Shown piece by piece: positions 7,006 through 64,000 of a stretch of 64,000 nt of DNA (its first letter is position 1; each line of letters opens with the position of its first letter). The translations under genes were made by a program, and so were the position numbers. This stretch comes from a virus (lineage: Duplodnaviria > Caudoviricetes), in IMG/VR virus record IMGVR_UViG_3300020576_002947, positions 160,001-224,000 of that record; one strand, written 5' to 3'. The notes beneath the pieces are model-generated. The model ran no database searches, had not been told where the DNA came from, and saw only the letters and a list, made by a program, of their open reading frames with translations.

Positions 7006-8107
7006 TAATTATCCTTTGTAAAGTCCTGGCTTTGACGCTACCTAAACGAGCTTCTTGCTCTGATTCAAGCTTTGCTTCTTTTGCAGCTAAGTTTTTCCTG
7101 ATCTGTAAACCTAAATCTGCTGCTGCGTCACTTATTAGTTGTCTAACAAATGGCAGAGTTCTAGATTCAGATCCAGCTATATGAGAAGCAAGACCGTCTA
7201 GAAAGTCGTCTACCTCATCTCCAATACTAGAAGCCATTTTAACTAGCTGAAGAGTCATTACTTCTTCTAAATAGCCTTGAAGAGTATTACCATAAGAGAC
7301 TGTAAAAACTTGTTTAGTTGGGGTCCAAACATCTGTCTCATTCTTTAAGTAGTTTTGGAGTAGATATTGAAGAGAGTGTGGAGATCCTTCTACAGCGACT
7401 GGTATGTAGTAAGATATAAAGTCCTTTAACTCCTCAGCAATAGGGTTCTCATATTCTTTCCTAAGCCCTACTGACCATTCTAAGATATTAGTTAGCTCAG
7501 TTTTAGCCTTGCCAAGTAAGTAAGAAAGCATTCTATTATTCTGAACCTCTTTACCTGGAATCACTTTGCCTGCTTTATCACGTTCAGATACAAGTACTAC
7601 TTTACCTGCCTTATCTTTAACTACTATAGGCTCTTTTGGCTTTAGAATATCATCTATAGCTTTATTAAATAAAACATCTAAAACTTCTGCTCTTTGTAGA
7701 TGCAAAAACACAGTCTGAAGAAACGACTCTGAGTGCCTATCAGACTTAGCTACCTCTTTCTCTATATTATCGATCTCAACTGCACTAGCTGTAAAGGATG
7801 GATAAGATACTGAGTCGTCTAAAATTAGCTCAATAGGAACGTAGTTTTGTTCTACAAGCTCAGCGTATCTAGGAAAATAAGGACTCTCAGCGCCAGCTTT
7901 GATATACTTAATAGTATCGTTTAAATCTGCTCTAACTCGTGCTGCTAACTCTTTAACATCATCTAGCTCAGCAGGAATTTTGGTATACTGAGTGTCATCC
8001 TCAACAGCAAGTTTGTCGATATTGAGGGTACTTGGTTCTACACCAGTAGACCCTGCTTCAACTTTCTTCTTTACATCAAATACCTTAAATAGGTCCGAAA
8101 TCCTCAC
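6983..8107 (-). CDS. Hypothetical helical head-module protein
   Basis: 374-aa ORF between terminase and portal, overlapping both neighbours. Confidence 0.6.
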   Translation of the reverse strand: MRISDLFKVFDVKKKVEAGSTGVEPSTLNIDKLAVEDDTQYTKIPAELDDVKELAARVRADLNDTIKYIKAGAESPYFPRYAELVEQNYVPIELILDDSVSYPSFTASAVEIDNIEKEVAKSDRHSESFLQTVFLHLQRAEVLDVLFNKAIDDILKPKEPIVVKDKAGKVVLVSERDKAGKVIPGKEVQNNRMLSYLLGKAKTELTNILEWSVGLRKEYENPIAEELKDFISYYIPVAVEGSPHSLQYLLQNYLKNETDVWTPTKQVFTVSYGNTLQGYLEEVMTLQLVKMASSIGDEVDDFLDGLASHIAGSESRTLPFVRQLISDAAADLGLQIRKNLAAKEAKLESEQEARLGSVKARTLQRIINVLENSF

Positions 8108-10508
8108 TGGGCCTCCATGCTGTATGCTTTATTATATCGTAAGTTACTAGCTCTGAGTCTAGCCATAGAAAATCTTCGTTATAGCCAGGGACATGTTTCT
8201 TTAATAGGGGTATAGGTTCAGGTAAAAAGTTATTTGTACCAACTAGTACTTTCTCCTTAATATCTTCACCATGTAAGAATATAATGTACTCAATAAACAT
8301 TAAACAGTCGATATAATGCTCGTCTTTATCAGTAAATACTTGTCTACCACTAGGATTTGTTTTTGATTGATATTTTATAAGCTGTCTCTTAAGATCAAGG
8401 TACTTAAAGTCGTCAGAATCATCAGCACCGCTAGCAATTAGCTTATCTTCTTCAACACGCTTACGTAATCTTTTAACCAGATACTCTTTAGCATGTCGTT
8501 TTTCTGACATAGTGTCTGAGTTTACATTTCGTGCAATTCTAGATTGTGAAGGTTCGTTAGAGTCTACCCAAAGGACACTCTGAAGGGCTAAGAGATAAAG
8601 CATTCCGTCTACATCGAATCCTCTTCTTTCTAGCTCGTACTTAAGCTCATCATATCGATCAAAACCACCTCCACCATGGTCCATACAAACATAATCAACT
8701 GAGTACTCCCAGTGTAGCTCTAGAAGTCTATTTACAGTATCATGTAGTAGTCTATCTGTAACAGCTAAGGTTTCTTGGTGAACTACAGTTAACTTGTCAG
8801 TTAATGGCTCGTACTGTCCAATTATAACTGAAGGACCACTTTGTACTCTATCCCAGTCACAACCCATTATTCTTACATGCGCCCGATCTACTAGATGGTT
8901 ACCATAAGTATATTCTTCTTTAAAGATTTTGTCTACTATGGTTTGAGGGAAAACTGTGTTCTCGCCACCCATAGGCTTTAGTAAGAATTCAGTTTCCCAT
9001 TCTATATCATTCTTACATTCAGCTCTGAGAGCTTTAAGATCATCTTCTGTAAGGTCGATCCCTAGTCGATCAGTTACAGGAATTTTGGTAATTGTAGATT
9101 TATCAGGTGGGTTAATAAAGATGTCGTTATAAAAACGGCCTGATGGGTTCTTAATAGTCCCGATAATATAGTTGATGTTGGTGTCAAAACGACGATGCTC
9201 TCCCTGCATATCACCAATCATAAAGGGCCAGATAGCTTGCCAAGCAGCATCAGAAATATCCTGCGCTTCATCAACAATAGTCATATCAGGGGACTTACCT
9301 CTGACTTTATCTGGTCTTACCAAGGCCATACCTGTAATAGTAGAACCAGTAATAAACTTCCTAGACGGCTGACCCGTATTGGTATTACCAACCTTATGTT
9401 TCATTAATTGAATCAAAGGACTGGCTTCTGTCATCATATCTATATAGTCAAATACTTCTTTTACCTGTTGTACTGATGCTGCAAAGTAGATTATTCTAAG
9501 ATCTTTCATTGTACATAGGAAGTATAGAATATTAGCAGCAATGCCGTAAGTCTTCCCACCTCTTCTATGAGCACAGTTATGTACAACAAGGTCTGAGGCC
9601 ATAAAATTATGGTCCTCATGGTCTACTGATATATCGTAAACATTACGAAGACCAATACTTCTTACATTAATGAGCTTATCCCAACATCTGGAAGGCTTGG
9701 TCTCTGTTTGATTAACTTCTAGTCCTATAAGATTTAAGAATTCATTGATGTCATGCTTTTCACACAGGAAGATGATATTGTCGTCATTAATTCTACTATG
9801 GATACCAAATCTTTGGAGCAAGTGCTGATGATCTTCAGCCATCTCTCTGGTTCTATTAAAGAGAGCAACTAATTCTTGATCTTTTTCTAAAATTCTACCT
9901 TGATTAGCAAAGTAATACGTAAAGTAATATCTTAAACACTCTTTAGTTAAAGAAAAGATCTTGGTGTTTACTGAGGCATGTAGTTGAGAGAGATCAGAAA
10001 GAAACTCAATTCCGTCTTTAGTCTCTTCAGATGTACCAAAGATATCAGTTTTGTCTGGAGTTAGTATACAGTCTCCAATCTTAAAGTCTTTTACCTTAAT
10101 CCAGCCTGACGATTTAGTATAGATTTCATGGTCTGGTGTAAGCCTAAGTACTTTACCTGATTCAAAGACTAGTTTATAGCACTCTTTCTTTTGAGGATTT
10201 TTAATCCACTTAGCGTCACTCCAAACTACTTTATTTAAAGTGAGGTCATATAAGACTGTTTCTTTTATCCAGTCTAAGGAGTCTATCCTAACAGGACGAA
10301 GTGTCTCTGGGTCGATAACCCTAGTAGTCTCATCAACACATACGTAGTTGTACTTATTAATACCAGCTAGTAGTTGTTTTTGAAGGTAATTTAACTTTAA
10401 AGGAGCTTTTGTAGTAGGATCTACTAAAACAGACTCAATCCACGGAATAGGGCCTTGAGCAGCAAGAGAAGATAAATATTTCCTATCCTCTTCAGAGATC
10501 TGAATCAT
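8085..10508 (-). CDS. terL: Terminase large subunit containing an intein
   Basis: Q motif (LNYLQKQ), Walker A AHRRGGKT, Walker B MTIVDEAQ, RNase H-like IMGCDW, CMD and C-terminal EHYID. Confidence 0.92.
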   Translation of the reverse strand: MIQISEEDRKYLSSLAAQGPIPWIESVLVDPTTKAPLKLNYLQKQLLAGINKYNYVCVDETTRVIDPETLRPVRIDSLDWIKETVLYDLTLNKVVWSDAKWIKNPQKKECYKLVFESGKVLRLTPDHEIYTKSSGWIKVKDFKIGDCILTPDKTDIFGTSEETKDGIEFLSDLSQLHASVNTKIFSLTKECLRYYFTYYFANQGRILEKDQELVALFNRTREMAEDHQHLLQRFGIHSRINDDNIIFLCEKHDINEFLNLIGLEVNQTETKPSRCWDKLINVRSIGLRNVYDISVDHEDHNFMASDLVVHNCAHRRGGKTYGIAANILYFLCTMKDLRIIYFAASVQQVKEVFDYIDMMTEASPLIQLMKHKVGNTNTGQPSRKFITGSTITGMALVRPDKVRGKSPDMTIVDEAQDISDAAWQAIWPFMIGDMQGEHRRFDTNINYIIGTIKNPSGRFYNDIFINPPDKSTITKIPVTDRLGIDLTEDDLKALRAECKNDIEWETEFLLKPMGGENTVFPQTIVDKIFKEEYTYGNHLVDRAHVRIMGCDWDRVQSGPSVIIGQYEPLTDKLTVVHQETLAVTDRLLHDTVNRLLELHWEYSVDYVCMDHGGGGFDRYDELKYELERRGFDVDGMLYLLALQSVLWVDSNEPSQSRIARNVNSDTMSEKRHAKEYLVKRLRKRVEEDKLIASGADDSDDFKYLDLKRQLIKYQSKTNPSGRQVFTDKDEHYIDCLMFIEYIIFLHGEDIKEKVLVGTNNFLPEPIPLLKKHVPGYNEDFLWLDSELVTYDIIKHTAWRPSEDFGPI
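9576..10340 (-). mobile_element. Intein (255 aa) in TerL with a degenerate LAGLIDADG remnant
   Basis: Starts CVDETTRV; block B LRLTPDHEIY; ends VYDISV...NFMASDLVVHN followed by Cys(+1); inserted just before Walker A. Confidence 0.93.
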
Positions 10509-34927: not shown

Positions 34928-35225
34928 AGCTACAGTTATCTTCTATCATACCCTTAAACTGATCCTGATACTCCTCCCAATCCATCAACTTAAACTCCTC
35001 AATAATATCATTGTCATTAGCATAGGCAACTAGTACTTGTCCCTGTGTAATAAGATAGCCATTAATAAAACCTAGAACAGATGCCCACCCATGAGGATCA
35101 GCTTGAACAGTAGGATGATCTTGCATACCATCACCTAAATAAACTTTCCCAAACAAGAAGTTACTAAAGGCCATAGGATTAATAGCGTTGACACTTTCCA
35201 AATACTTCAAAAAATCAGCATTCAT
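34890..35225 (-). CDS. Hypothetical protein with Cys-rich acidic tail
   Basis: ATG at 35225 overlaps the upstream stop (ATGA); ends CSCDSCECNC. Confidence 0.55.
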   Translation of the reverse strand: MNADFLKYLESVNAINPMAFSNFLFGKVYLGDGMQDHPTVQADPHGWASVLGFINGYLITQGQVLVAYANDNDIIEEFKLMDWEEYQDQFKGMIEDNCSCDSCECNCGDDE

Positions 35226-36265
35226 ATAGAGTAATGTAGCTCCCAATCCTTATGTGATTTTCTGTACCCATGAACGACCTTAGTAATAGCAGAAGGCTTA
35301 ACACCTGCCAACCTACAGAAATCAGCAATCTTAAAACAACTAACGATCTCACCGGTAACAGTATTCTTAAAAGAAATCTTAGACTGATTATCTAATGAAT
35401 ATCCTTTGTACGATTTAATCTGACCGTTAATTAAAAGACTTAACCTCTTACTAGGAATACTATACTTTTTTGAAAACTCTGAAACTGAATTAGCTTCATA
35501 CACAATACCATCAGCATCAACTAATCGAACAACTTTAGAATATTTCTTTGGTTTATTTGGTGACAAAGTGTAGCCCTTATATGAAACTTCTCTTCTAGTA
35601 ACCATAGAATAAAAAGAAGAGTGGTTTAGATTATTATCTCTGCAAAACTGAGCTATATTTGTAAGAATGATTTCATTGCCCTCAGGATCATATACAGTAA
35701 CAGTTCTACCTATAGGTGTCTTAGGCTTTATCTCTTTAGGTATCGTATTAGGAACCTCACCTAACCTATACCAACCTTTATAAAACTTCTTATTACCCCC
35801 TAGAACTTTTTGAACATCTTTATAGCCAGGAAGACTATACTCTTTACAAAATTTAGCTATATTAGAAAATTCTACAATAGTACCATCAATATGCTGAAGA
35901 GTTTTAATTTTTAGAGGAATTGAAATTTTTTCCTGTCTTTTTACTCTTTGTTTCCTTAGTAGTAAAGGACTCTCATAAAAAGTTTGATAATAGTTCTCAA
36001 GATTAGTAAGATCTTCTACAGGACATGAGGCTAGTAATTCGAAAGAAAAATCTTCCCTTCCAAAAAGACTATGAGACTTATTTAGTTCTACTATAGTGTG
36101 TCTGTTATAGTGAGCATAGACCATGTGCTGCGATATACGCTGTCTTACATCTTTAGAAGATCCTACATAGTATTGTCCTGTAGAAATAATATTAATCTTA
36201 TAAACACCAGAGCCTTTATTATTATCTCGAAACTCATTGTATGTTAGAGATTTATTGTAAACCAT
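35222..36265 (-). CDS. Free-standing GIY-YIG homing endonuclease with four tandem DNA-binding repeats
   Basis: GVY...YVGSS...R...H...E catalytic domain; four ~45-aa repeats of type G....N/S..FC/S...L....YKG(W/Y). Confidence 0.9.
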   Translation of the reverse strand: MVYNKSLTYNEFRDNNKGSGVYKINIISTGQYYVGSSKDVRQRISQHMVYAHYNRHTIVELNKSHSLFGREDFSFELLASCPVEDLTNLENYYQTFYESPLLLRKQRVKRQEKISIPLKIKTLQHIDGTIVEFSNIAKFCKEYSLPGYKDVQKVLGGNKKFYKGWYRLGEVPNTIPKEIKPKTPIGRTVTVYDPEGNEIILTNIAQFCRDNNLNHSSFYSMVTRREVSYKGYTLSPNKPKKYSKVVRLVDADGIVYEANSVSEFSKKYSIPSKRLSLLINGQIKSYKGYSLDNQSKISFKNTVTGEIVSCFKIADFCRLAGVKPSAITKVVHGYRKSHKDWELHYSI

Positions 36266-45393: not shown

Positions 45394-45398
45394 CGTGA

Positions 45399-45590
45399 AT
45401 GACAATGAAACAATCTCTCCAAATCATTATCCTTATATGTATGCTACTAATAGCAGCACTATGGTTAACATTTATTATTAACCTACCACCTAAGCTATCT
45501 ACTAGACAAATACTAGGCTTAGTATTATTGTTTGCAGAGTTCCTACTGTTGACAGTTTTATATTACTACGTGTATAAAACTTCACAGTAA
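45399..45590 (+). CDS. Two-TM hypothetical protein
   Basis: Hydrophobic pattern. Confidence 0.5.
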   Translation: MTMKQSLQIIILICMLLIAALWLTFIINLPPKLSTRQILGLVLLFAEFLLLTVLYYYVYKTSQ

Positions 45591-45711
45591 AAATAGTTTA
45601 TTTTTTATATCTTAAATTTAGTGCTATCAATTATACAGCATTTGATTTTATATATTAAATATTCTGATATAGAATTTACGTGTTTTGATTTCTATACTCT
45701 TAGGAACTTAA

Positions 45712-45918
45712 ATGACAATACTCACTCTACTCTCAACACAGAAGTTTACTAGTGGTATATACAATGGACACTATGTAGAAGATGTTATTCATACTAATCC
45801 CATGTATGTTTCGTAGGCTATGGATAATCTATCTAACTTTAAGATTACTAATGATCTTAAGGATCTTCTCTATGAAGTACTTAATGATCACTATCCTGAT
45901 GATCCACAGTATGATTAG
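45712..45918 (+). pseudogene. Small FGKYKG-type (exonuclease X C-terminal/DUF3820-like) gene with an internal TAG
   Basis: F.SGIYNGHYVEDVIHTNPMYVS*AMDN; the TAG at 45814 falls where the family has Trp; the frame continues to 45918. Confidence 0.55.
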
Positions 45919-46016
45919 TTAATCTATATAAGTATTCTCTATCATTCATTCTATGTTCTATATCACTACGTTATTTATTTATATACGTTGATCTTATATA
46001 TTTTGGAAGAAAGGAA

Positions 46017-46268
46017 ATGAAGAGCTGGCCCGAGATCCCTCCTATTACTGAAGAGAACCTTTATGCAGTTGTGTGTACTAAATCTAAACTAGTATGGAAC
46101 AAAACACTTCAATGTCTTGAACCACATATGCTAGCTGGTCTACACCGCAGAGTATATGTGGCTAAAGATACTAATGATCCTGATGTGCTTTCTATCTTCA
46201 TAAAACAACGCTGGGAGATGGTTAAAAGAAACCGATTTAAGTTTTCAGGTCCTATAAGGTCAGCCTAA
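46017..46268 (+). CDS. Hypothetical protein
   Basis: AAGGA RBS, 83 aa. Confidence 0.55.
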   Translation: MKSWPEIPPITEENLYAVVCTKSKLVWNKTLQCLEPHMLAGLHRRVYVAKDTNDPDVLSIFIKQRWEMVKRNRFKFSGPIRSA

Positions 46269-46322
46269 TATATACTATTATATTTATTGGAAGAAATACA
46301 TTAGATAATCATTAGTGCAACT

Positions 46323-46562
46323 ATGACACAAGAACAACTCTCAGCAACTAAGAAACTTAAAACCAGCTACCATATCTCTGGTCTAGCTATGCTGCTTGCA
46401 GCAACCTATATTCTTATTGTTACTATCAGAGTAATTATGGGATACCAGTTAGATCCAGTAACATGGATTCTACTTATCCTTAATGCTACTTTGTTCTATA
46501 TAAACCATGATAGATCTCTTAATCTTAAGAGAGATATTAAAATATTGGGAGAACAGAAATGA
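46323..46562 (+). CDS. Two-TM protein (tandem family 1/3)
   Basis: ~80 aa; two TM helices and a basic amphipathic C-terminus; ATGA coupling. Confidence 0.55.
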   Translation: MTQEQLSATKKLKTSYHISGLAMLLAATYILIVTIRVIMGYQLDPVTWILLILNATLFYINHDRSLNLKRDIKILGEQK

Positions 46563-47580: not shown

Positions 47581-48108
47581 ATGAACGAGAACAGTAGTCA
47601 AAGATTAGACCTTTCTGAAATTCACAGTGATGTGATCTATCCTGCAATTGTTAATCATTTTGATACTTTGGTAAAAGGATTGTGTAATTTGTATCCCAAG
47701 CTAAATAGCGGACTCTTTACAACAGGTCTTCATAAACTTACTGTAAATTGCAATGGTATTAATGCTGTTATCGTCTTTAGACATAACAACACTAACATCC
47801 TATATCTTGATTGCAGAGTTATTGTTTATAGTAACAAACCTGCAATCATTGAGATCAATGATATCTATACTGATAGATGTTATAGTGTTCTTCATAACAA
47901 GTTTGTATCTCATCCTATCTTACCAGAGCCTTTGAACTTTAAAGACTTTCCTGAATTTAAGAAGAGACCTACTATCAATTCTACTGAACATGCAATAGGA
48001 CAATATAATATTAGTGATTTCCCAACTATCTTCTTAACAAGAAAATTCATTTTTAATCCTAGTATCCCTGACTTTGAAAAAGCAGTATTGAATATGTTAG
48101 TATTCTAA
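47581..48108 (+). CDS. Hypothetical protein
   Basis: 175 aa. Confidence 0.55.
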   Translation: MNENSSQRLDLSEIHSDVIYPAIVNHFDTLVKGLCNLYPKLNSGLFTTGLHKLTVNCNGINAVIVFRHNNTNILYLDCRVIVYSNKPAIIEINDIYTDRCYSVLHNKFVSHPILPEPLNFKDFPEFKKRPTINSTEHAIGQYNISDFPTIFLTRKFIFNPSIPDFEKAVLNMLVF

Positions 48109-48112
48109 ACTA

Positions 48113-48331
48113 ATGAACCCAAGCATTAACTTCTTACTTTGTGTTATTACTTCAATTGCTATTTGGATCTTTACTGCAATTCTTGCAGTTGTAAGTGCAA
48201 CATTTTTTAAACCTGATGTTCTACATAAAGAACATTTTATTAAGTACATGAGATTTTCTATGGTACTTTGTCTTATAGATGTTATTCTAATTTCTATCCT
48301 TTGTGTATACTTCATAATGCACACAAAATGA
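48113..48331 (+). CDS. Two-TM hypothetical protein
   Basis: Hydrophobic pattern. Confidence 0.5.
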   Translation: MNPSINFLLCVITSIAIWIFTAILAVVSATFFKPDVLHKEHFIKYMRFSMVLCLIDVILISILCVYFIMHTK

Positions 48332-48666
48332 CAATCATCCAGAGACCAGAATTTATTCTTAATCTTGAGAACATCTTTATCCTTAACGAAGTAGATGATA
48401 AAGTAACTCTTCATGTTCTCACTGCTGAAGGTCTTATTAAGAGATCATTCGATTATACTTTGGCAGACTTGCTATCATATGCACAAGTTAATGCAAATCC
48501 TAATCCTACTATGGTGTATATTGAGGGGTACTTAATAACTCCTCTTAGTAATATTATTCTAATTAAAGACACCGGTGTTGGTATTGAAATTTTCTTTACT
48601 AATAAAGGAAATCCTATGCCACTCCCATTTAAAATAACTGATATTAAACTAATGAACTTTAATTGA
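48328..48666 (+). CDS. Hypothetical protein
   Basis: ATGA-coupled start at 48328. Confidence 0.5.
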   Translation: MTIIQRPEFILNLENIFILNEVDDKVTLHVLTAEGLIKRSFDYTLADLLSYAQVNANPNPTMVYIEGYLITPLSNIILIKDTGVGIEIFFTNKGNPMPLPFKITDIKLMNFN

Positions 48667-48671
48667 GGACC

Positions 48672-49304
48672 ATGGAAAGAATCAATCTTAACTGCGAAAC
48701 ACATTTTTTATACCCAATCCTGAGAGAAGCTATGTATCGATATATGCTTAAGCAGAATTTGCTTAAGGTTACACCTATGAAGGAAATGAATCATACTTTC
48801 TCTGAGGAGAAGGGTGCATTCTTTATTGAGACTCAAGGCTATGATATTAACTATACTCTCAAGATGTATGGAGATGAAATCTCTTTAGATCTTTGGGGCA
48901 CAGTTGTTGATCAAATGACCTTTGATCTTAATGAAGAAAAGCTCCCATTTGAATGGGAAACTATTGTTTATAAATTCCTTAGCCAACCTCATTATGTAGA
49001 ACTTCCTAATAGTAAGAAAGTAATTACATCCTTGGCAACTAAAGCATTCCAACAGTATGCTGATGAACATGAAGGAACAGTTGAATATCTTCACTATTAT
49101 GGTGACGATAAAAGCTGGATTATATTAAGTAACTTTGGCAAGATCTTTATTGATCCTAACAATGAAAAGGAACGTGTCATTGTTGTCAAACCTTTTATTG
49201 ATGAAAAGAAAGTAGTACGTTATCCTGATAAGGTATCGTACACTCCTGATATGTGGATTAATATGTTCTATAATATGATTAAAACAGTTAATCAGCCTAC
49301 ATAA
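48672..49304 (+). CDS. Hypothetical protein
   Basis: GAGG RBS before ATG 48672. Confidence 0.6.
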   Translation: MERINLNCETHFLYPILREAMYRYMLKQNLLKVTPMKEMNHTFSEEKGAFFIETQGYDINYTLKMYGDEISLDLWGTVVDQMTFDLNEEKLPFEWETIVYKFLSQPHYVELPNSKKVITSLATKAFQQYADEHEGTVEYLHYYGDDKSWIILSNFGKIFIDPNNEKERVIVVKPFIDEKKVVRYPDKVSYTPDMWINMFYNMIKTVNQPT

Positions 49305-49305
49305 T

Positions 49306-49330
49306 GGGAGGGGCCCCTTTAGGGGAGGGG
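49306..49330. repeat. 25-nt G-rich direct repeat, copy 2
   Basis: Identical to 44827-44851. Confidence 0.9.
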
Positions 49331-49358
49331 CCCACTATTAAGTCCAAGGAACCAGAGC

Positions 49359-49667
49359 ATGAAAGCTTTCAACACAATCATTAATATTTTGTTTGCTGTT
49401 GCTTATTTGACAGCATTCATTCTGTTTGTTATTACAGCACAATCCAACATTGTCAATATCTTTATTGCAAGTGTGCTAGGATTTGCAGCCATTGGTCAAC
49501 TCATGGCAGCCACTATATTTTGCAAAGCAACCTATGCTTCAGCAAGAGTATATTCAAGAGCTATTGGAGAAAATCTTAAGCTCAGCGATGAACTTATTGA
49601 AGAAGCTGATCAGATCTATCAGAATGATTCTGATGATATTGATCCAAGATTTGAACGTAAACCTTAA
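49359..49667 (+). CDS. Two-TM hypothetical protein
   Basis: AAGGA RBS; hydrophobic N-terminal half. Confidence 0.55.
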   Translation: MKAFNTIINILFAVAYLTAFILFVITAQSNIVNIFIASVLGFAAIGQLMAATIFCKATYASARVYSRAIGENLKLSDELIEEADQIYQNDSDDIDPRFERKP

Positions 49668-49681
49668 CTAATTAATCACCC

Positions 49682-50137
49682 ATGACTGAAATCACTGGAA
49701 ACATTCTCAGTATTAAGAAAGGGATTATTTGTCATCAAGTAAATTGTCAAGGACGTATGGGATCTGGAATTGCACTACAGTTCCGAGAGACATACCCTAA
49801 AGTATACAAGACCTATCAAACATTATGTAGTAGTATTCCATCTGCACAGTTGTTAGGGCGTTGTCAGCTTGTTAAAATTGATGACAACCTTCTTGTTGCT
49901 AACATCTTCGGTCAAGAGTACTATGGTACTGACAAAAGATATACTGATTATGAAGCAGTAGCCAAATCATTTAAGTCACTAGAGAATTGGCGAGACTTAA
50001 AGCTAAGAACTATTCCACAGGATAAGATCTATATCCCATATAAAATGGGTTGCAACTTAGGAGGAGGCTTATGGCATACCTACCTAGAAGTTGTAACATC
50101 TATTATCCCTAACGTGACAGTTGTCAAACTACCATGA
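49682..50137 (+). CDS. Macrodomain ADP-ribose hydrolase (Poa1p/DarG-like class)
   Basis: GNI...ICHQVNCQGRMGSGIA...YP, ANIFGQ, IPYKMGCNLGGG.W. Confidence 0.9.
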   Translation: MTEITGNILSIKKGIICHQVNCQGRMGSGIALQFRETYPKVYKTYQTLCSSIPSAQLLGRCQLVKIDDNLLVANIFGQEYYGTDKRYTDYEAVAKSFKSLENWRDLKLRTIPQDKIYIPYKMGCNLGGGLWHTYLEVVTSIIPNVTVVKLP

Positions 50138-50228
50138 AGAAAAACCTTCAAACATTGCTATACATATTCATTGGAGCAGTTATTGGATTTATCTTTGCTT
50201 CTATTGGTATTGCACTATTGAGCTTCTC

Positions 50229-50630
50229 GTGAGTTTAAACGTAACAGCATCAATTATCATTATTGTTATTGAATCTAAAGAAATTGAAATCTATTACAGT
50301 AACAAACCACCTCAGGGTACTGAGGACAGAGATGTTATTGAAATTGCTACATCAAGCGGTTCTTTTAATGTTCTGAAATGTACAGACATTGAGGAAATCA
50401 AAAAGCTTGACCTTAAAAAAGTCGTTCTAAACTTTAGTGATGACGACTGGTTCACAGCATATAGCGATCTATTTGAAGCTACTATCTATGCTATAAATCA
50501 AACACCATTAATGCCTAAGCGGCAGGCTATGCAACTATTCATTGATATTACTAAGTTCTTAGAACTTAATATTAAAGCTGTTGATGAACAGCTCGACAAA
50601 TGCGCTCAGAGAATGATTGATGGTTTCTGA
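50229..50630 (+). CDS. Hypothetical protein
   Basis: GTG at 50229 overlaps the stop of a 32-aa TM peptide (50134-50232). Confidence 0.5.
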   Translation: MSLNVTASIIIIVIESKEIEIYYSNKPPQGTEDRDVIEIATSSGSFNVLKCTDIEEIKKLDLKKVVLNFSDDDWFTAYSDLFEATIYAINQTPLMPKRQAMQLFIDITKFLELNIKAVDEQLDKCAQRMIDGF

Positions 50631-51069
50631 AAAACAAACTATTATTCTTATGCATGGACTTCCTGGATCAGGTAAGTCAACAAGAGCTAATGAAATTAAA
50701 ACCTATTACACTCTCAACAATACCACTTGTGAAATCTGTTCTGCAGATTCCTATTTTATTGATGATAGGGGGAGATATAACTTTGATCCCACTAAACTCC
50801 ATCTTGCACATAAAACCTGTATCGACTCTGTTATTCATCACCTGTCAAATAAAGTAGAAATTGTTATCGTAGACAATACGAATCTTAAGAAGTCAGATAT
50901 CCAACCGTATGTTAACATTGCTGAGAGGCTAGGTATTACTATCATATCAGAAGAACCATCCACACCTTGGAAGGATGATCCTATTACATGCTCTGAGAAA
51001 ACGGTACATCAAGTACCACTTCATACCATTGAGCGTATGAAGAAGTTACAAGAAACCCCGCCATTTTAA
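50617..51069 (+). CDS. P-loop polynucleotide kinase (AAA_33/N4BP2-like)
   Basis: HGLPGSGKST, SADSYF, VIVDNTN, H.VP...I.RM. Confidence 0.85.
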   Translation: MMVSEKQTIILMHGLPGSGKSTRANEIKTYYTLNNTTCEICSADSYFIDDRGRYNFDPTKLHLAHKTCIDSVIHHLSNKVEIVIVDNTNLKKSDIQPYVNIAERLGITIISEEPSTPWKDDPITCSEKTVHQVPLHTIERMKKLQETPPF

Positions 51070-51122
51070 TTAGCAATAAAGCACAAAAAATATTAATCTA
51101 TCCATAGTGTGGAAAGGACAAC

Positions 51123-51545
51123 ATGGGTTACGCATTTTTAGGAAGCGCTTTCGTTTTATCTTGGCTGTTTGCCTATTTTGAATTGTTATTGGTTACCAAA
51201 CTAAATCTTAAAGGCCTTGCCTTAAACCTTCCACTATTTGATTTCTTTTTCTCAATCCCTATCGCAATTTTGCTAGGTATTGGCTTTAATATTAATGGTG
51301 CTGTAGCTGGAATGGCTATGACACTTGCATCATTCTGGACTCTGTTCTGGTATGCTCATTGGAAGCGTAAGGAATTCAACAGATTCTATGATGGCAAGAA
51401 GCATAAGCTATGGAAATCTACGCTTGCAAAGGAACTCGACAAGATCAGGAATGATATTGAAGAGGGAACATTTATTGGTCAAATTTTAATAGATCAGCTT
51501 AAGGAAAAGGAAGCCAAGTTGAAGAAGGAGCTTAAGTGCAAGTAA
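51123..51545 (+). CDS. Multi-TM membrane protein with coiled-coil tail
   Basis: AAGGA RBS; overlaps the start of the polymerase gene. Confidence 0.6.
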   Translation: MGYAFLGSAFVLSWLFAYFELLLVTKLNLKGLALNLPLFDFFFSIPIAILLGIGFNINGAVAGMAMTLASFWTLFWYAHWKRKEFNRFYDGKKHKLWKSTLAKELDKIRNDIEEGTFIGQILIDQLKEKEAKLKKELKCK

Positions 51546-53938
51546 ATTATCAAGAGTATGAATGGTATGGACAACCTGTTGTCATTCCGTTCAGAGTTAT
51601 TGGTGAGAAATCTGTTATTGGCAAGGATGGTAAAGTGTCAAACGTTAAGCAGATCAACGAAGGAATCAAAGCGGCAGCAGACCGTGAAGATTTCCCTAAG
51701 TTGATTGATATGCTTGAGGACCAATACTTTAAGACATTGAGAATGGTCACTGGTATTCCTGTTAAAGGACACTATGGACCTGTCTTTACATCTGCAGACA
51801 TTGCACCTGAGTATTACTTCACAACTCCAGAAGGAGGAACAGTAGTTAATGAAGATCTTATGACTTCCAGAGCTGTTGACAGTGATGGAGATCATGCTCT
51901 AAGATCTAATCTAAAAGATGCAAATGGAAAATACTTTAAGCATAGGGAAGCTATGTTTATTAAGTTTCCATTTACTAAGAAGGTTCCTGTTCTTAAGGAA
52001 CTTCCTGGTAAGTATCCATATACAACTTTCACACCTGTCCCAGAGGACAAGGAAATCGTTATTACTGATATGTCTGAGAAGTACAATCTTGATGCTCTAG
52101 TTGAAAAAGCTAAAGATGTTCTTGCTATGCCGCTTGTCGGACCAACTGACAACTACTTTGATTATAAGGAAGCAATGGCCGTTAAGGATCTTGATTCCTA
52201 TCATATGAAAGTCCAACATCTGTTTGAAGACGAAGACAGATTTCTTGCTATGGAGGGAGATATGAAAAAGGTTCGCGGAGGGAAGATGGAGAAAGTCGAA
52301 ATCCCCCGAAGGCGAAGCATTGGGACACTTCCTACATGTTGGATTTTGGGTATGGCTAGGGGCAAGTCCTATTCACTACTTCCAGAAATTAAAGATGCTA
52401 TCTATATGATGAGGTATCTTGAAGGTATGGAATTTGAAACAGTCGAATCAGCGCTCTCTCGAAGAGACGATGAGGTGTTCCCCATTCCTAAGAAACTCGA
52501 GATCAATTCTAAAGGGCACGGCATTGTTCAAAGACTTATTGATCTCAAACTTCTAACCATTGAGAAGATTCCACATGCAGTCCCAGGACTGTTTGTATCT
52601 GTTATTAGATTGTATACTCCTAGTAAAGATTACAGAACTCTTCACCCAGTTGCTGTTACAGAAACTAAGAGAGACACTTCTGTTATGACTTACTGTATCG
52701 TAGTATCACCAATCGTGGTTAACTATGATAATCAGGTTAAGATTGTTCCTATTGAGTACGCTCTTGAAGCTCATCTCAATTCAGTTATGACATTTATGCC
52801 ACTATCAGGGGGCCATTGGCCTAGTCGATTGGATCATATCCACCAGAACCCTGTTAAGTCAGCTATGCTTGAGAAAGCTCTTAGAGAATTTCTCAGTAAG
52901 TATGGCTACTTCCTATATCATAATAAGACTATGAAGACAATGGCACTAGCCGTTGCTAAGAATAAGATTGCTGTCCATTTCCAAACTAAGAATCCACATG
53001 AGAAAGCTGCTTTCATGAAAGAGCTGAACATCAAGCTTAAAGCTACCAAGCTGGCTATTGTTCCATGTGGTGGAAACAAGAAAGGAACTGAACGTGCAAA
53101 CTTCAGTATTTGTGATCCTGTAACATTCTCGCCATTGTATGCGGGCAAGTACGCTGATCCAAAGCGTTCATGTCAGATTGCTTCTCAGCTTGCTAACGCT
53201 GTACCCCTACCCAGAAAGGCTTGTCTTGTTATTACAGGACGACCAGAAGATGGGAAGGGCACTGGCGGTCAGATGTTTATGACATCAGAGGGCGCTGAAC
53301 TAAGCAAACTATCTAACGTGTTTCTAAACTCATTGGTCTATCAGAAAGATGAGAATCATCAGCAACGAACAACATTCAGAAACTTTGCTGGAGAGGAATT
53401 TGAAGGCTGGCTTGGAGACCCTCAAGCGACTTCTGAAATCCCTAAAATCCTCAGCCCAATCGGACTGAAGAACATGGCTATGAGAATCTATAATAAGATT
53501 CAAGTACAGCATAATGGATTTTGGTTTGAACCTGATTTCCTGTTATCTCTGAAAGAGATTGAGGATAAGGATGCTTGGAATTCTCTTGTTGAGCATGGTG
53601 TCGAGAGATCATTCATGAACAACAATGGAGAAATTATTCCATGCTTCATCGTTTTCATAAACCTATATCGTTCTACTAATGCTTCAGAATGTGTCAAACC
53701 AGGTAAGAAGACCAGAGTGGTCTCAGGCATGGAAGCACATGCAATTAAGGAAGTTCTTTTAAATCATAATCTTGAGATTCCAGAATCAGAGCCTGACATG
53801 GAATATCTTGAAGCTATCAGAAAGGCAGTAGCGCAGATCAGAGATATCTGCAACCTGCCATTGCCCAATGTACCGGACGGCTTGTGTGCTGTTCGGGGGG
53901 CGGCGGTGGGTTCGGCGGAGGGTGCTGTCCCCTTGTAG
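51536..53938 (+). CDS. Putative non-virion minimal single-subunit two-barrel RNA polymerase (permuted domain order)
   Basis: AAGGAG RBS and GTG start; DSDGD (aa 115-119), KFP (143), VGPTDN (201), MEGDMKK (239), GTGGQMFMT (575), K637-ILSPIGL-K645 and D667-FLLSLKEIED-K678, with the same spacing as E. coli beta K1065/K1073/D1095/R1106. Confidence 0.75.
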   Translation: MQVNYQEYEWYGQPVVIPFRVIGEKSVIGKDGKVSNVKQINEGIKAAADREDFPKLIDMLEDQYFKTLRMVTGIPVKGHYGPVFTSADIAPEYYFTTPEGGTVVNEDLMTSRAVDSDGDHALRSNLKDANGKYFKHREAMFIKFPFTKKVPVLKELPGKYPYTTFTPVPEDKEIVITDMSEKYNLDALVEKAKDVLAMPLVGPTDNYFDYKEAMAVKDLDSYHMKVQHLFEDEDRFLAMEGDMKKVRGGKMEKVEIPRRRSIGTLPTCWILGMARGKSYSLLPEIKDAIYMMRYLEGMEFETVESALSRRDDEVFPIPKKLEINSKGHGIVQRLIDLKLLTIEKIPHAVPGLFVSVIRLYTPSKDYRTLHPVAVTETKRDTSVMTYCIVVSPIVVNYDNQVKIVPIEYALEAHLNSVMTFMPLSGGHWPSRLDHIHQNPVKSAMLEKALREFLSKYGYFLYHNKTMKTMALAVAKNKIAVHFQTKNPHEKAAFMKELNIKLKATKLAIVPCGGNKKGTERANFSICDPVTFSPLYAGKYADPKRSCQIASQLANAVPLPRKACLVITGRPEDGKGTGGQMFMTSEGAELSKLSNVFLNSLVYQKDENHQQRTTFRNFAGEEFEGWLGDPQATSEIPKILSPIGLKNMAMRIYNKIQVQHNGFWFEPDFLLSLKEIEDKDAWNSLVEHGVERSFMNNNGEIIPCFIVFINLYRSTNASECVKPGKKTRVVSGMEAHAIKEVLLNHNLEIPESEPDMEYLEAIRKAVAQIRDICNLPLPNVPDGLCAVRGAAVGSAEGAVPL

Positions 53939-53943
53939 CAATC

Positions 53944-53978
53944 AGGGTCTTAGGTCAGATAACTGGCTTAAGGCCCTT
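53944..53978 (+). terminator. Hairpin downstream of the polymerase gene
   Basis: AGGGTCTTAGGTCAG/CTGGCTTAAGGCCCT stem. Confidence 0.55.
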
Positions 53979-53989
53979 AAAATTTTCTC

Positions 53990-54268
53990 ATGGACAGGTT
54001 GAAAGCATTTATTAAGAAAGTGTACGAACGCTTTAAGCAATTCACCAAAGCGATTCGTGATAGAATTGCTATGGTTCTTGTTAAAGTATATCAGTACAGT
54101 ACCGAGATTTTGCTTTTAGCTTGGTCAGGGGTACTATTCTTTTTGCTGAGAATGAATTCCAGTATCGTCTTGATCTTTATGTTCTTCATTGCATTTGTTG
54201 TTCTTTATTTTCTAGTTAAAGCCTTGCTATTAGCACAGGCAATTAAGATGTTTATGAAGACACCCTGA
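53990..54268 (+). CDS. Two-TM membrane protein
   Basis: 92 aa. Confidence 0.55.
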   Translation: MDRLKAFIKKVYERFKQFTKAIRDRIAMVLVKVYQYSTEILLLAWSGVLFFLLRMNSSIVLIFMFFIAFVVLYFLVKALLLAQAIKMFMKTP

Positions 54269-54343
54269 GGACCTTCTGACTAGTAATAGGAGGTTATCCT
54301 TGAACTTCTCATCAGCAAAGCAAAACCAAGCAAAGGAAAAACA

Positions 54344-55012
54344 ATGAGCGCAATCAAAGCCTCACTATTCACTGCCGCTATCGTTGCATCATCAGTTTTC
54401 GACTTCCTGTCAACGAGTGAAAACGCACAAGCGTTCAAGCTCGAGGATGACCATCGGAAATTGGTTATTGAAGACGCTGACATTCCGGTGCCAGCTGGTT
54501 CTCGTCGAAAGACGAAGGATGTTATGGCGACCCATGCAGTCGTCTCACTTGCGAAGATCAAGTCTCAGAACTTGGTCACGCTAAAAGCCGTCGCTGAGGG
54601 CGGCAATCACGACACGTACTACCGTGTCAATGTTGAGTTCTATGACGCCACTATTCCCGAAGAAGCCAAGATGCTCGGATCGGTTGAGGTCTGGGGTTAC
54701 AACCCCAAACGGCCCAATCAGCTCGAGATTCGTGGCGGCGTTGGCCTCCCTAAGAAGGAGAGGTCCTCGGGTGATGGCAATACAAGCACAGGCTTGTATA
54801 CCGATGATACCAAGCAGCCTGTCTGGACACAGGCAATGGTTCAACGCTTTATTGTGAATGCTATGACTGTCATTGCTGAGCAGAACCCCTCACTGGCTAA
54901 GGCCATGATTGAGGTTTGGGAATCTCAGCAGGTCCCTGAGCCCGAACAGGTGAAAGAGGAAGACACGGTCGAACAACTGGCCGCGCTTGACACCGAATTT
55001 GCCGCTCCATAG
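54344..55012 (+). CDS. Possible SpoVG-like nucleic-acid-binding protein with acidic tail
   Basis: AAGGA RBS; V.LP.K....DG....Y.D...P then a helix, resembling SpoVG FVAMPSKR..DG.F.D..HP; acidic C-terminus. Confidence 0.35.
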   Translation: MSAIKASLFTAAIVASSVFDFLSTSENAQAFKLEDDHRKLVIEDADIPVPAGSRRKTKDVMATHAVVSLAKIKSQNLVTLKAVAEGGNHDTYYRVNVEFYDATIPEEAKMLGSVEVWGYNPKRPNQLEIRGGVGLPKKERSSGDGNTSTGLYTDDTKQPVWTQAMVQRFIVNAMTVIAEQNPSLAKAMIEVWESQQVPEPEQVKEEDTVEQLAALDTEFAAP

Positions 55013-55017
55013 CAACT

Positions 55018-55053
55018 AGGGGGTATGGTTGAAAGACCATATCCCCTTTTTTT
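55018..55053 (+). terminator. Intrinsic terminator
   Basis: GGGGTATGGTT-GAAA-GACCATATCCCC followed by T7. Confidence 0.9.
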
Positions 55054-55484
55054 ATTAGCTTCGCCTAGATATTTTGCTAGTGTTTGATAGTATTTTGCTA
55101 CAATTTACTAGCCTAAATGGGCTATATCCCTATTCTACGTATGTCTACTATTCAGAAAAAACATTAAACCATTTGGTGTAGACAAAAGGTTCTAAGTCTA
55201 CTATAAAAGCAGTAGACACAATTTTATATAGTTAAAAGGGTAACATAAATCCTCAAAAGTATGTCCGTTAAGGACGGAAAAAAGGATAAAAGACGTTCTG
55301 TCTATCCCATGAGTAAAACCGAATATCGTGCTTTCAGAGCTACCTGGAACAGAAGTCCTCAGTGTGCTTCACGCTGAACAAACTTTCTAACTTTCACGTA
55401 AAGTTTCTACCTTTTAGGCCCTGGCCTTAATAGAGCGCTCTTGGTCTCAATGTGAAAAGGAGTTGAGGCCCTAACTTTTTTATT

Positions 55485-55640
55485 CGTCCATGACACCGTC
55501 AGGTGGTAAACCAACCGGATAATTAGACAGCGCCGAGCTTCCCGTACTGTCTACACGGACGCGTTATAAGGGGGTCGTTGGACTCGCAGCCTTTTCTCGA
55601 CAGTTTAGGTTTGTAGACTTTCAGCGGGCCCCCTTATTTC
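55485..55640 (+). ncRNA. Structured RNA domain(s) of unknown family
   Basis: CGTCC/GGACG enclosing TAGACAG/CTGTCTA; long hairpin closed by ATAAGGGGG/CCCCCTTAT; no ORF. Confidence 0.45.
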
Positions 55641-55644
55641 AATT

Positions 55645-56160
55645 TGCCGGCTAGAGCAAAGGTATGGAGAAATCCATAAGCGGAGGTATGTTCACACATA
55701 GCCTAAGCCAAGCACCAGCTTTCTAAGGGTCATGTAAGTGGCCTTGATAACCCTGGTATGGTAGCATAGTGAAAGTAAAGTTACCGCCATTTTTAGTTCC
55801 ATGACTTCTCGTAAGGGAAGGTAAAACACAAAGATTATAAAAGGTCTTTGTGAAAAACTTGTTGAAAGCAGCACTCGCAAGAGGCATTGCTATAGACAAG
55901 GTAATTAAGTCATAAGCATCGCTCTTGGCTTGCACGGAATCGTTTTGATTTCCCTGTAAAGGGAATTGGACACACTCGAACAGCACTAAGTACGTCCTGT
56001 AAAAGGGATACTCCTGGTGGGAAATAGGGTTGCGAAAGCATGCAGGGATGTGTCCCAGTGGGCTGATCTAACACTGAGCTGAATAGAGTACTCATTCAGT
56101 AAGATCTGTTGTCAGGCATTCGTGTCGCACAACAGAAAAACTTGATCGTCTTCTTGAATG
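55645..56160 (+). ncRNA. Large multibranched ncRNA candidate (ROOL/GOLLD size class; family not assigned)
   Basis: Six or seven GNRA-capped hairpins and long-range helices AAGCCAAG/CTTGGCTT, ATGACTT/AAGTCAT, GGACACA/TGTGTCC; no credible ORF; close to tRNAs. Boundaries approximate. Confidence 0.65.
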
Positions 56161-56239
56161 TAATGGTGTAATAGAAACACACTCTGGTAACAGAGAGTAT
56201 ACTAAGATGCAACTTCTTGGTACTGAGAGAAGACTTTTT

Positions 56240-56547
56240 TTGGACTGGATATGAAGAAATTGATACTCGCTACCCTCATAAGGTAGATAGAAGACAAACT
56301 AGGAAGGTCCAAACTTTTTTCTATGTAGTGGGTGGGAGCCCCGCGGGAGGGAGTTCCCTCTTTGTCCGAGAAGGCGTGCATAGAACCCAATTTCCGTACG
56401 GAACACCTCGGGGCAGATAGCCCTTGGGACGGAAGTGCGTAGACGTAGTACCAAGACCTACGAAATCAAAACTTGGACCCTGCTGGGTTGGAGGTTGGTT
56501 CTGATCTGGTTCTCCATGGCATGAGGGTCCTTTAATTAGGACCCTTC
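56240..56547 (+). ncRNA. Further structured RNA domain(s) ending in a hairpin
   Basis: TTGGAC/GTCCAA, CTATGTA/TGCATAG, TTCCGT/ACGGAA, CGTAG/CTACG and GGACCCT/AGGGTCC helices. Confidence 0.4.
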
Positions 56548-56640
56548 AACTCTGTTAAAAAGAGTATCCTCAGGACCCTGGCACAGTCCTTTCCAGCTAA
56601 GCTAACTGAGGACAATCTTAGATAGGACGGTATTTTTGCT

Positions 56641-56973
56641 TTGAGCGAAAGACTCCCAACACCCTTACCTTTCTTTATTACATCCCTTATGGTTCCTGGT
56701 ATCCTACTTTCACTTGCAGGCGGGCATTTTGCTTTAAAGCATACTATAAGAACTGAGTCTGTTACCATAACTGAGAAGAAAGCTATTGGTCCAGAAAGAT
56801 TTATCTATGGTAAGAACTCTAATAATGAACTTGTTGTGATGACTGTAACCAACAATTGGTTACTCTTTCAAACAAATGCTAATAGTCTTTATGATAAGCT
56901 ACAAGTTTCTAAAACATACAACCTAGAAGTAGCAGGTTATATGAGTATTAAGTCTCTTATCAATATAAAATAA
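56641..56973 (+). CDS. Membrane-anchored protein (DUF1523-like secreted phage protein)
   Basis: TM helix, then VTITEK...N...LYDKL..KTY.L.V.G; start uncertain. Confidence 0.5.
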   Translation: MSERLPTPLPFFITSLMVPGILLSLAGGHFALKHTIRTESVTITEKKAIGPERFIYGKNSNNELVVMTVTNNWLLFQTNANSLYDKLQVSKTYNLEVAGYMSIKSLINIK

Positions 56974-56991
56974 TTAGTAATTAAGGTTATT

Positions 56992-57249
56992 ATGAAGGAC
57001 CATTTTTATTTTGGTCATTTCAGGACAGAAGTAAGTTATGGACAGCTAAAACCTGAAGACATTCATGGCTACTTCAGAGGCCTAATGGTAGGTTTTTGGT
57101 GTTTCTCTTATATAAGAGAAGGTCGAGTTCTTGTAGGCACTCGTGGCAAAACATACCAGAGTGCTAGACTAGATGCTTTTGACGAATATATTAAAACTTG
57201 TAATTTTTATAGAGTTTCTCCATCTGTTACAAGAGAGGAAATCGAATAA
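56992..57249 (+). CDS. Hypothetical protein
   Basis: 85 aa. Confidence 0.55.
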   Translation: MKDHFYFGHFRTEVSYGQLKPEDIHGYFRGLMVGFWCFSYIREGRVLVGTRGKTYQSARLDAFDEYIKTCNFYRVSPSVTREEIE

Positions 57250-57255
57250 GTACAA

Positions 57256-57565
57256 GGGCCTGTAGCTCAGTGGTTAGAGCACGCGGTTCATCAAAGCTCC
57301 ACACACTTTCCTTTTATTAGGTGTGTGATAGCAGGTGCCACAAGATTGGAAACTACTTGTGGGATCTCTCCTGTTCAGGAAAACCTAAGGATCAATAAGG
57401 ATAGATCTATGGCAATCGTGAGTACTTTGTAAAGAGTATGCAGAGACTGTACGGAGAGGGCCTAAACTCAGTAATGAGTACGGTCAAGAGACAGTCCAGG
57501 GAGTCAGGAAACTGACACAAACCTGAACCGCATGGTCGTGGGTTCGATCCCCACCGGGCCCACCA
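57256..57565 (+). tRNA. tRNA(CAT), probably Ile2, split by a group I intron (exons 57256-57291 and 57526-57565)
   Basis: GGGCCTG/CGGGCCC-A-CCA acceptor; TAGCTCAGTGGTTAGAGC D arm; spliced anticodon arm CGCGG-TTCAT^AA-CCGC; GGTTCGATCC T arm. Confidence 0.9.
57292..57525 (+). mobile_element. Group I intron, 234 nt, no ORF (IC3-like)
   Basis: U before the 5' splice site and terminal G; P1 CAT^C/GGTG; P3 CTCTCC/GGAGAG; R GCAGAGACTG; S AAGAGACAGTCC. Confidence 0.9.
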
Positions 57566-63123: not shown

Positions 63124-63174
63124 ACTATAACAAACAACGTGCCCGGATGGCGGAATGGCAGACGCAGCGGACTT

Positions 63175-63906
63175 TTAAAATTCTACACATTTTGCACTAA
63201 TTAACTGAGTCTACCTATTACATTATAGGTATGGAACAGTTGATATGCAAAGTATGTGGAAGCCCTAGAAAGAAAGGTAGGCGCTTATGCAGTAAATGCA
63301 ACAGCGATAGAATGGCTCAATATCCCAGATATACTTGGGAGAAAGAATGTGTGGCTTGTAAAGAGGTTTTCTCGGCTCTTAGAAAACGATCTATTCTATG
63401 TCCTGATTGTTATAAACAGTCTAGGAAAAAAGAGGACTTGTCCTCAAATAACTACGTACCAGGGAAACCTAATAAACGTGGTCATAGAATAATCGCAGAA
63501 AAGATCTTGGGAAGAATCTTAAGCTATAACGAAGTTGTTCACCACCTAAATGAAGATCCAAAAGATAACTCTGTAGACAACCTTTGGGTAATGTCAAGGA
63601 GAGATCATGCAAGACTTCATTCTTTTCTAGAGTTACAAAGAGTCATATGGGAGAAATCCTATACGGAGAAGAGTGTAAATTGCTGGAATATCGTTAGAGT
63701 CTTGCAAACTACAGCATGGTTGGAAACAACGGGTGCGAAAGTTCTAAAATTGCAAGAATTCGACAATCAGCAGCCAAGCCCCTAAGGAGAAATCTATGGG
63801 GAAGGTTCAGAGACTATACACACTCAACCCAAACGTGTAATGACGTGGGTTATGATATAGTCCAGCGCACAACTTGCAAGAGGATCGTGAAAGCGATAGT
63901 GTGATG
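63175..63906 (+). mobile_element. Group I intron, 732 nt, encoding an HNH endonuclease
   Basis: P1 GGACTT/GAGTCT with U.G; P3 GAGTGT/ACACTC; P AAATTGCTGGAA; Q AATCAGCAG; R TCAGAGACTA; S ATGATATAGTCC; terminal G. Confidence 0.92.
63231..63785 (+). CDS. Intron-encoded zinc-finger HNH homing endonuclease
   Basis: Four CxxC pairs, then HRIIAEKILGR.L...EVVHHLNEDPKDNSVDNL......DHARLH. Confidence 0.9.
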   Translation: MEQLICKVCGSPRKKGRRLCSKCNSDRMAQYPRYTWEKECVACKEVFSALRKRSILCPDCYKQSRKKEDLSSNNYVPGKPNKRGHRIIAEKILGRILSYNEVVHHLNEDPKDNSVDNLWVMSRRDHARLHSFLELQRVIWEKSYTEKSVNCWNIVRVLQTTAWLETTGAKVLKLQEFDNQQPSP

Positions 63907-64000
63907 AAACTCCGCAGCCACTTGTGGCATGGGGGTTCGAGTCCCCCTCTGGGCACCACAACTTTAAGGAGAAACAATGACTGATCCTCAATTTCAGGAA

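Follow-up and report, generated by a model that had tools for sequence, protein, structure and literature searches.

Positions 55645 to about 56241 of the window (the whole 64,000-nucleotide stretch analysed, bases 160001-224000 of a 239,691-bp IMG/VR virus record) hold a non-coding block with a large excess of tetraloop-capped hairpins on its plus strand and no match to any known RNA family. We hypothesize that the block encodes one ornate RNA molecule, and we consider it an even call that this is a stand-alone plus-strand gene whose product is a stable, extensively folded non-coding RNA of about 0.6 kb, its family not yet described. If real, the candidate would add a new family to a kind of element already known, and its phage carries a GOLLD RNA too; this pairing of GOLLD with a second ornate RNA in one phage was not found described in the literature searched. 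No function is known for GOLLD and ROOL, which rank with the largest RNAs of bacteria and phages and have recently been shown to form RNA nanocages. The candidate itself is an orphan, and its value is that of a well-defined candidate, not of an established discovery.

Genomic setting of the candidate

The record is rated 94 % complete and represents an uncultured giant phage. Genes in the window run leftward up to about 36,300 and rightward beyond, and the genes neighbouring the candidate are all on the plus strand. The candidate lies in a 1.6-kb gap (55013-56640) that, taken as a single gap after discounting an 87-aa antisense ORF, is the genome's largest without ORFs. This gap starts directly after a strong intrinsic terminator (55018-55047, plus strand) that closes the 222-aa gene upstream and consists of a 13 bp stem, a GAAA loop and T7. 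The AT-rich spacer behind the terminator contains a 21-nt tandem direct repeat (55070-55111, plus strand) that starts with TATTTTGCTA, a 10-mer found at this single site and absent from the rest of the genome. The repeat is possibly a promoter or an operator. A search for a sigma-70-like promoter for the candidate found none, and the phage's own polymerases may transcribe the locus. Two more gaps free of ORFs, each 0.5-0.6 kb long (window 45394-46016 and genome 75324-75829), have no Rfam match at gathering cut-offs.

The candidate lies at the upstream edge of an RNA island that comprises tRNAs, group I introns, Ro60 and GOLLD. Downstream of it within the island are tRNA-Lys, tRNA-Val and two tRNAs, identified by ARAGORN, that are split in the anticodon loop by group I introns: one at 57256-57565 with a 234-nt intron (57290-57523, RF00028 38.3 bits) and one at 63141-63958 with a 732-nt intron (63180-63911, RF00028 70.9 bits), the latter containing an HNH endonuclease ORF (63231-63785). 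The island extends past the window with further tRNAs and a Ro60/TROVE protein of 468 aa (L012:11643-13049, genome 235643-237049, plus strand), about 21 kb downstream of the candidate. The TROVE domain of this Ro60 homolog is matched at E 3.9e-9, and there is a weak match to the Ro60 vWA domain. Y RNA families gave no match at Rfam gathering cut-offs across the whole genome, and RtcB is absent from the phage genome. Elsewhere in the window we observed an intein (Intein_splicing, E 1e-12) with a LAGLIDADG domain in an 807-aa protein (8085-10508, minus strand), a GIY-YIG/NUMOD endonuclease (35222-36265), and a 150-aa P-loop kinase (AAA_33 / KTI12-like, E 9e-11; 50617-51069, plus strand) located two genes upstream of an 800-aa protein.

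The block is non-coding

No plus-strand frame of at least 40 aa is present across the core, which upholds the claim of the original prediction that some 500 nt lack a credible ORF. Because the phage has a tRNA with a CUA (amber-reading) anticodon (L005:3986-4058, genome 23986-24058), alternative codes were tried as well, and reading TAG as Q, TGA as W or TAA as Q opened no long plus-strand frame. Searches of ten stop-to-stop frames of the region against Pfam and PHROG returned no match. Genome-wide, long ORFs are found under the standard code despite the CUA-anticodon tRNA. Another tRNA, at L004:9017-9105, barely passes the tRNA-Sec model (49.1 bits versus a cut-off of 47).

A coding alternative would be a small protein on the minus strand (55723-55986, 87 aa, GTG start), which we find hardly credible. 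Its codon-usage score of 0.152 is between that of genes (0.248 +/- 0.10) and that of shadow ORFs (0.057 +/- 0.146), but one third of the shadow ORFs score as high. In addition, this ORF is antisense to neighbours that are all on the plus strand, has no Pfam or PHROG match, and has just three matches in 1.84 billion proteins, all of them long multi-stretch proteins and none a real relative.

Tetraloop-capped hairpins are in excess on the plus strand

Hairpins were counted if their stem had 4 bp or more, G.U pairs included, and their loop was a GNRA or UNCG tetraloop. The six GNRA hairpins named in the original prediction were each found in place on the plus strand: a 6 bp GAAA hairpin at 55663-55678 (fold P 0.95), an 8 bp GUAA hairpin with three G.U pairs at 55726-55745 (P 0.96), two further GUAA hairpins at 55805-55820 and 55950-55965, a GCAA hairpin at 55874-55883 and a second GAAA hairpin at 56031-56040. 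A UUCG hairpin at 56115-56126, also on the plus strand, was found in addition.

Under this rule the 516 nt of the originally predicted interval contain six tetraloop-capped hairpins compared to 0.51 +/- 0.72 in dinucleotide shuffles, none of 3000 of which reaches six. The excess holds for stems of at least 5 bp (five hairpins versus 0.20 in shuffles) and for the full 55645-56241 (seven versus 0.61). The genome background, taken over both strands, is 0.53 +/- 0.81 per 516 nt, and a density of six hairpins is reached by just two loci in the genome, the candidate and genome 3650-4200, where GOLLD is located. The hairpin-density measure thus recovered, with no prior knowledge of it, the phage's one certified ornate RNA together with the candidate.

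On the minus strand, the candidate shows a single tetraloop-capped hairpin. This count, together with the three G.U pairs of hairpin 55726-55745, which become C-A mismatches on the minus strand, makes the plus-strand call sound. The preference for the plus strand originally proposed from G.U pairs and GNRA loops therefore holds, with six hairpins versus one. Unpaired positions of the candidate fold are enriched 1.50x in A (97th percentile of 120 random genome windows), and the same measure gives 1.56 for the phage's GOLLD (98th percentile, 120 random windows). RNA commonly makes its tertiary and quaternary contacts through GNRA loops and A-rich linkers.

No known RNA family matches the candidate

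A scan of the window with Rfam 15 at gathering cut-offs assigns the candidate to no family; the models for OLE, raiA, HEARO, RNase P, tmRNA, 6S, group II introns and riboswitches have no match at the locus. Permissive scans (E up to 10) of 2.4 kb (54800-57200) and of 0.6 kb returned only chance-level matches to snoRNA, CRISPR-repeat and lncRNA models. ARAGORN finds no tmRNA in this phage. Resemblances to RNase P and tmRNA noticed by eye were rejected on the wrong order of elements and the absence of a model match.

The phage does carry a real GOLLD RNA (L004:4407-4801, plus strand), which matches the full length of the RF02032 model with 105.2 bits and E 2.8e-28. It was found by a permissive Rfam scan of genome 3600-4900, and since 105.2 bits is below the curated cut-off of 150, the gathering-level scan missed it. 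The GOLLD locus as a whole (genome L004:3694-4850) is outside the window and has an ORF-free, hairpin-rich 5' part (about 3735-4400). A scan for the conserved GOLLD 3' domain with RF02032 at E up to 10, of the kind that gives this GOLLD its 105.2 bits, found no match at 54800-57200. ROOL (RF03087) is an RNA of about 581 nt that forms an octameric nanocage; its model has 574 positions and a gathering score of 99.1 bits. RF03087 gave no match at E up to 10 across the whole 239,691-bp genome, a result to be read with the fact that 14 control genomes were also negative in a comparison that had no positive control.

The original prediction left a choice between a divergent GOLLD or ROOL member and a new family. 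The lack of an Rfam match agrees with the latter, while a GOLLD or ROOL relationship is not detectable. We regard a very divergent ROOL or GOLLD missed by the Rfam models as very improbable. The length of about 600 nt and the phage tRNA-island setting do agree with ROOL, which shares with the candidate the lack of an associated protein and of a known function (PMC5737381). Divergence in this lineage is also large, the phage's own GOLLD being below the gathering cut-off and without a BLAST match in 50,697 phage records. But ROOL has zero matches genome-wide at E up to 10, and the permissive scans show neither ROOL nor GOLLD at the candidate while the real GOLLD reaches 105 bits. The candidate further differs from GOLLD in having about half the length and no sequence similarity to the phage's GOLLD locus.

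Elements of the ornate phage RNA kind are defined here as non-coding, longer than 400 nt, rich in dense conserved helices and located near phage tRNA genes. The candidate is non-coding, of this size, hairpin-dense and in this setting; its helices could be compared with just one strain, which is 99.3 % identical.

Predicted fold and extent of the putative RNA

We place the putative RNA gene at 55645 to about 56241 on the plus strand (about 600 nt comprising the core, a 3' domain and a U-run) because, in the fold of 55640-56260, a closing helix at the end of the 3' domain is followed by U7. This three-hairpin domain (56148-56241) is closed by the 8-bp helix 56148-55/56227-34 (P 0.96), and with U7 at 56235-41 it has a terminator-like end.

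Upstream of this domain the predicted plus-strand fold is mostly made of local elements. The first GAAA hairpin is followed by a bulged hairpin with a UCAC loop (55684-55704, P 0.91-0.95), an ACCAG/CUGGU helix (55714-55757, P 0.74) enclosing the GUAA hairpin 55726-45, and a 6-bp hairpin with an A-rich 14-nt loop (55760-55785, P 0.91). Three adjacent hairpins then occupy 55805-55900 with P 0.95-1.0, namely the GUAA hairpin 55805-20, a 10 bp hairpin at 55827-52 and a hairpin with the GCAA tip at 55858-55900. Beyond a local hairpin at 55906-55932, a domain at 55968-56055 (P 0.92) is closed by GGACACA/UGUGUCC (55968-74/56049-55) and holds hairpins 55995-56008 and 56031-40, the latter with the GAAA loop. 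Three hairpins complete the core (56056-76, 56078-56100 and 56105-36 with the UUCG tip; P 0.90-0.97). The 9-nt loop 56085-93 in the middle hairpin contains the 8-nt palindrome GAGUACUC (56086-93), which could mediate self-association in the modelled fold, one such palindrome being well within chance.

The original prediction nested the hairpins inside three long-range helices. Complementarity exists for all three, and the GGACACA/UGUGUCC helix is supported (P 0.92); the other two are not. Forcing 55705-12/55924-31 or 55801-07/55907-13, each with perfectly complementary arms, costs 6.1 and 7.4 kcal/mol relative to the minimum free energy (MFE), and both clash with the local hairpin 55906-12/55926-32 (P 0.94). 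Long-range perfect 7-mers number 6 compared to 10.9 in shuffles and 8-mers 1 compared to 2.8; by these counts the proposed nested long-range architecture is no better than chance.

The MFE z-score of the candidate is -3.0 and that of the phage's GOLLD domain is -2.4. Random genome windows have a mean of -1.18 +/- 1.36, and since 4 of the 37 are at or below -3, we dropped the MFE z-score as evidence. When folded in isolation, several sub-domains do not outperform shuffles. A canonical 11-nt GAAA receptor was considered by eye, CCUAAG and UAUGG both being present, and was rejected as the flanking helix fails to form. The robust picture from folding is a dense chain of tetraloop hairpins with two or three closed domains, a nested global architecture not being demonstrated.

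Further hairpin modules are predicted on the plus strand around the candidate. One of these, 72 nt long, very stable and closed by a G-rich stem (55566-55637, z -3.56), may share the candidate's transcript; ARAGORN calls it neither tRNA nor tmRNA. Hairpin and T-run modules are found at 55423-81 and at 56239-56321, the latter ending in T7 and having a 3' arm that resembles the terminator-like arm 55466-81.

Homologs and a variant strain

The candidate has no paralog within the genome. Comparison with 50,697 phage records by blastn found nothing at E 1e-5 and chance matches of 20-32 nt at E 10. The phage's GOLLD locus has no blastn match in the same records either, so the missing BLAST matches say little about a wider family of the candidate. 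Hairpin-tolerant patterns with 18-23 fixed bases, run on IMG/VR, JGI metagenomes and GTDB genomes, found no homolog, and the seven loci returned are chance matches without the hairpins. A single-sequence covariance model of 55797-55917 matched only itself in a search of the phage's own genome and the distant relatives G001 and G002. Neither 5.8 billion proteins nor IMG/VR yielded a relative of the flanking proteins (222, 800 and 110 aa), and the nearest relatives of the capsid protein are 34 % identical. A literature search for newly described classes of ornate phage RNA found none that applies.

Through the 94-aa protein encoded downstream we reached two Logan contigs, one identical to the window (L044) and one variant (L043) that is 99.3 % identical over 47581-57249; the protein collection contained no third strain. 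Around the core, the variant differs on the left at 55209, 55468, 55515, 55562 and 55602 and on the right at 56136, 56223, 56235-36, 56250, 56315, 56440 and 56566. It is unchanged across 533 nt (55603-56135), compared to 12 changes in 1095 nt of non-coding flanks. The change at 56136 is one A fewer within an A-run, and the U-run 56235-41 is shortened from 7 nt to 5 (56235-36). At 55602, A to G turns a U-A pair into U.G and the pair is kept in the helix of 55566-55637. As the sole change in a confident helix it fits a plus-strand RNA, as a single case; no compensatory change can be read between the two strains.

The change-free block nearly coincides with the 55645-56160 interval of the original prediction. 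A post hoc Fisher test on the block gives p 0.008, while a change-free run of this length among the 12 gap events has p 0.11, and the pre-stated 55645-56160 interval has one change versus about 3.8 expected (p estimated at about 0.1). The coding block upstream is about equally invariant. The conservation of the core between strains is suggestive but, corrected for choosing the interval post hoc, falls short of significance (p about 0.1). The variant also has a 467-nt insertion (L043:10561-11028, at window position about 57249) upstream of the split tRNA with a 156-aa ORF that has no Pfam match, and downstream of this insertion its divergence from the window climbs to 2-3 %.

Alternative readings of the locus

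One alternative, possible if on balance unlikely, is that no single large RNA spans 55250-56640 and that this 1.4 kb instead consists of small, separate folded modules in a row. These might be terminators, small RNAs, hairpins for processing or stability, or a long leader of the downstream operon. The hairpin and T-run elements at 55423-81, 56227-41 and 56306-21, two with similar 3' arms, would be explained in this way, and it agrees with the observations that most high-probability helices are local and that long-range helices are not above chance. Against it, the 55482-56234 interval is without a terminator-like T-run, the tetraloop hairpins cluster in one 600-nt block, and two domain-closing helices have P >0.9. 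Ordinary terminators or leaders have no need of seven GNRA/UNCG caps.

We judge it unlikely that the block is a non-functional spacer, such as a decayed gene or the relic of an intron or homing element, with its hairpins left over. Decay is not expected to spare six to seven tetraloop hairpins with G.U pairs on one strand, nor to leave the candidate unchanged while its flanks change, although the strain conservation is not significant. The genome does have at least two group I introns, several HNH and GIY-YIG genes and an intein, and group I introns, including those of this phage, use GNRA-capped hairpins as the candidate does. Its 5' motif, a GAAA hairpin between CAAAG and CGGAG, resembles the P2 region of the phage's tRNA-Leu intron. 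The lack of a homolog and of a sigma-70-like promoter is also in line with a relic. Yet a genome search with RF00028 for the conserved P3-P9 core finds four sites (the two real introns and two weak ones), none overlapping the candidate, which also shows no significant similarity to the phage's introns. The only split tRNAs reported by ARAGORN with introns allowed are those at 57256-57565 and 63141-63958, so that no tRNA halves flank the candidate, and no plus-strand ORF abuts it as a flanking exon frame.

Possible relation to RNA particles of phages

If the block is indeed a single RNA, it would be transcribed rightward, as its neighbours are, and end at the helix and U-run 56227-41. Its fold would string together about 17 hairpins, with two or three closed domains of several hairpins each, and its seven GNRA/UNCG-capped hairpins and A-rich linkers would make tertiary contacts, possibly between copies.

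Small stable RNAs beside phage tRNA genes have a precedent in species 1 and 2 of phage T4, non-coding RNAs whose function is not known; these are only about 120-140 nt, unlike the candidate. Ornate large RNAs are found near phage tRNA islands (PMC5737381; bioRxiv 10.1101/2024.12.08.627333). Both GOLLD and ROOL are located in such islands and form RNA-only cages (PMC5737381; bioRxiv 10.1101/2024.12.08.627333), GOLLD (RF02032) as a 14-mer nanocage (bioRxiv 10.1101/2024.12.08.627333). In the phage studied here GOLLD is, as the candidate is predicted to be, a large hairpin-rich RNA in the tRNA island on the same strand, and both loci have too many tetraloop hairpins for chance and unpaired positions rich in A. 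If GOLLD and ROOL are a guide, the candidate may act during infection as an RNA-only scaffold or sequestering particle and not as a message or riboswitch.

Extending the analogy, the candidate might be the first of a third class of ornate phage RNAs that assemble RNA-only higher-order particles, alongside GOLLD and Ro60, a proposal that we think decidedly unlikely. The contacts in such a particle could be made by GNRA loops, perhaps together with the palindromic GAGUACUC loop 56086-93. If true, giant phages would deploy several distinct RNA machines simultaneously. A real GOLLD together with a second, unrelated and equally hairpin-dense RNA of 0.6 kb would suggest more than two classes of large phage RNA, and a single genome with split tRNAs, Ro60, GOLLD and the candidate would let their roles be compared. 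The tRNA island of the distant relative G002, whose capsid protein is 34 % identical, contains a tmRNA (L023:6189-6537, G002 46189-46537) that matches RF00023 with 120 bits and for which ARAGORN predicts the tag DKSYAFLG.
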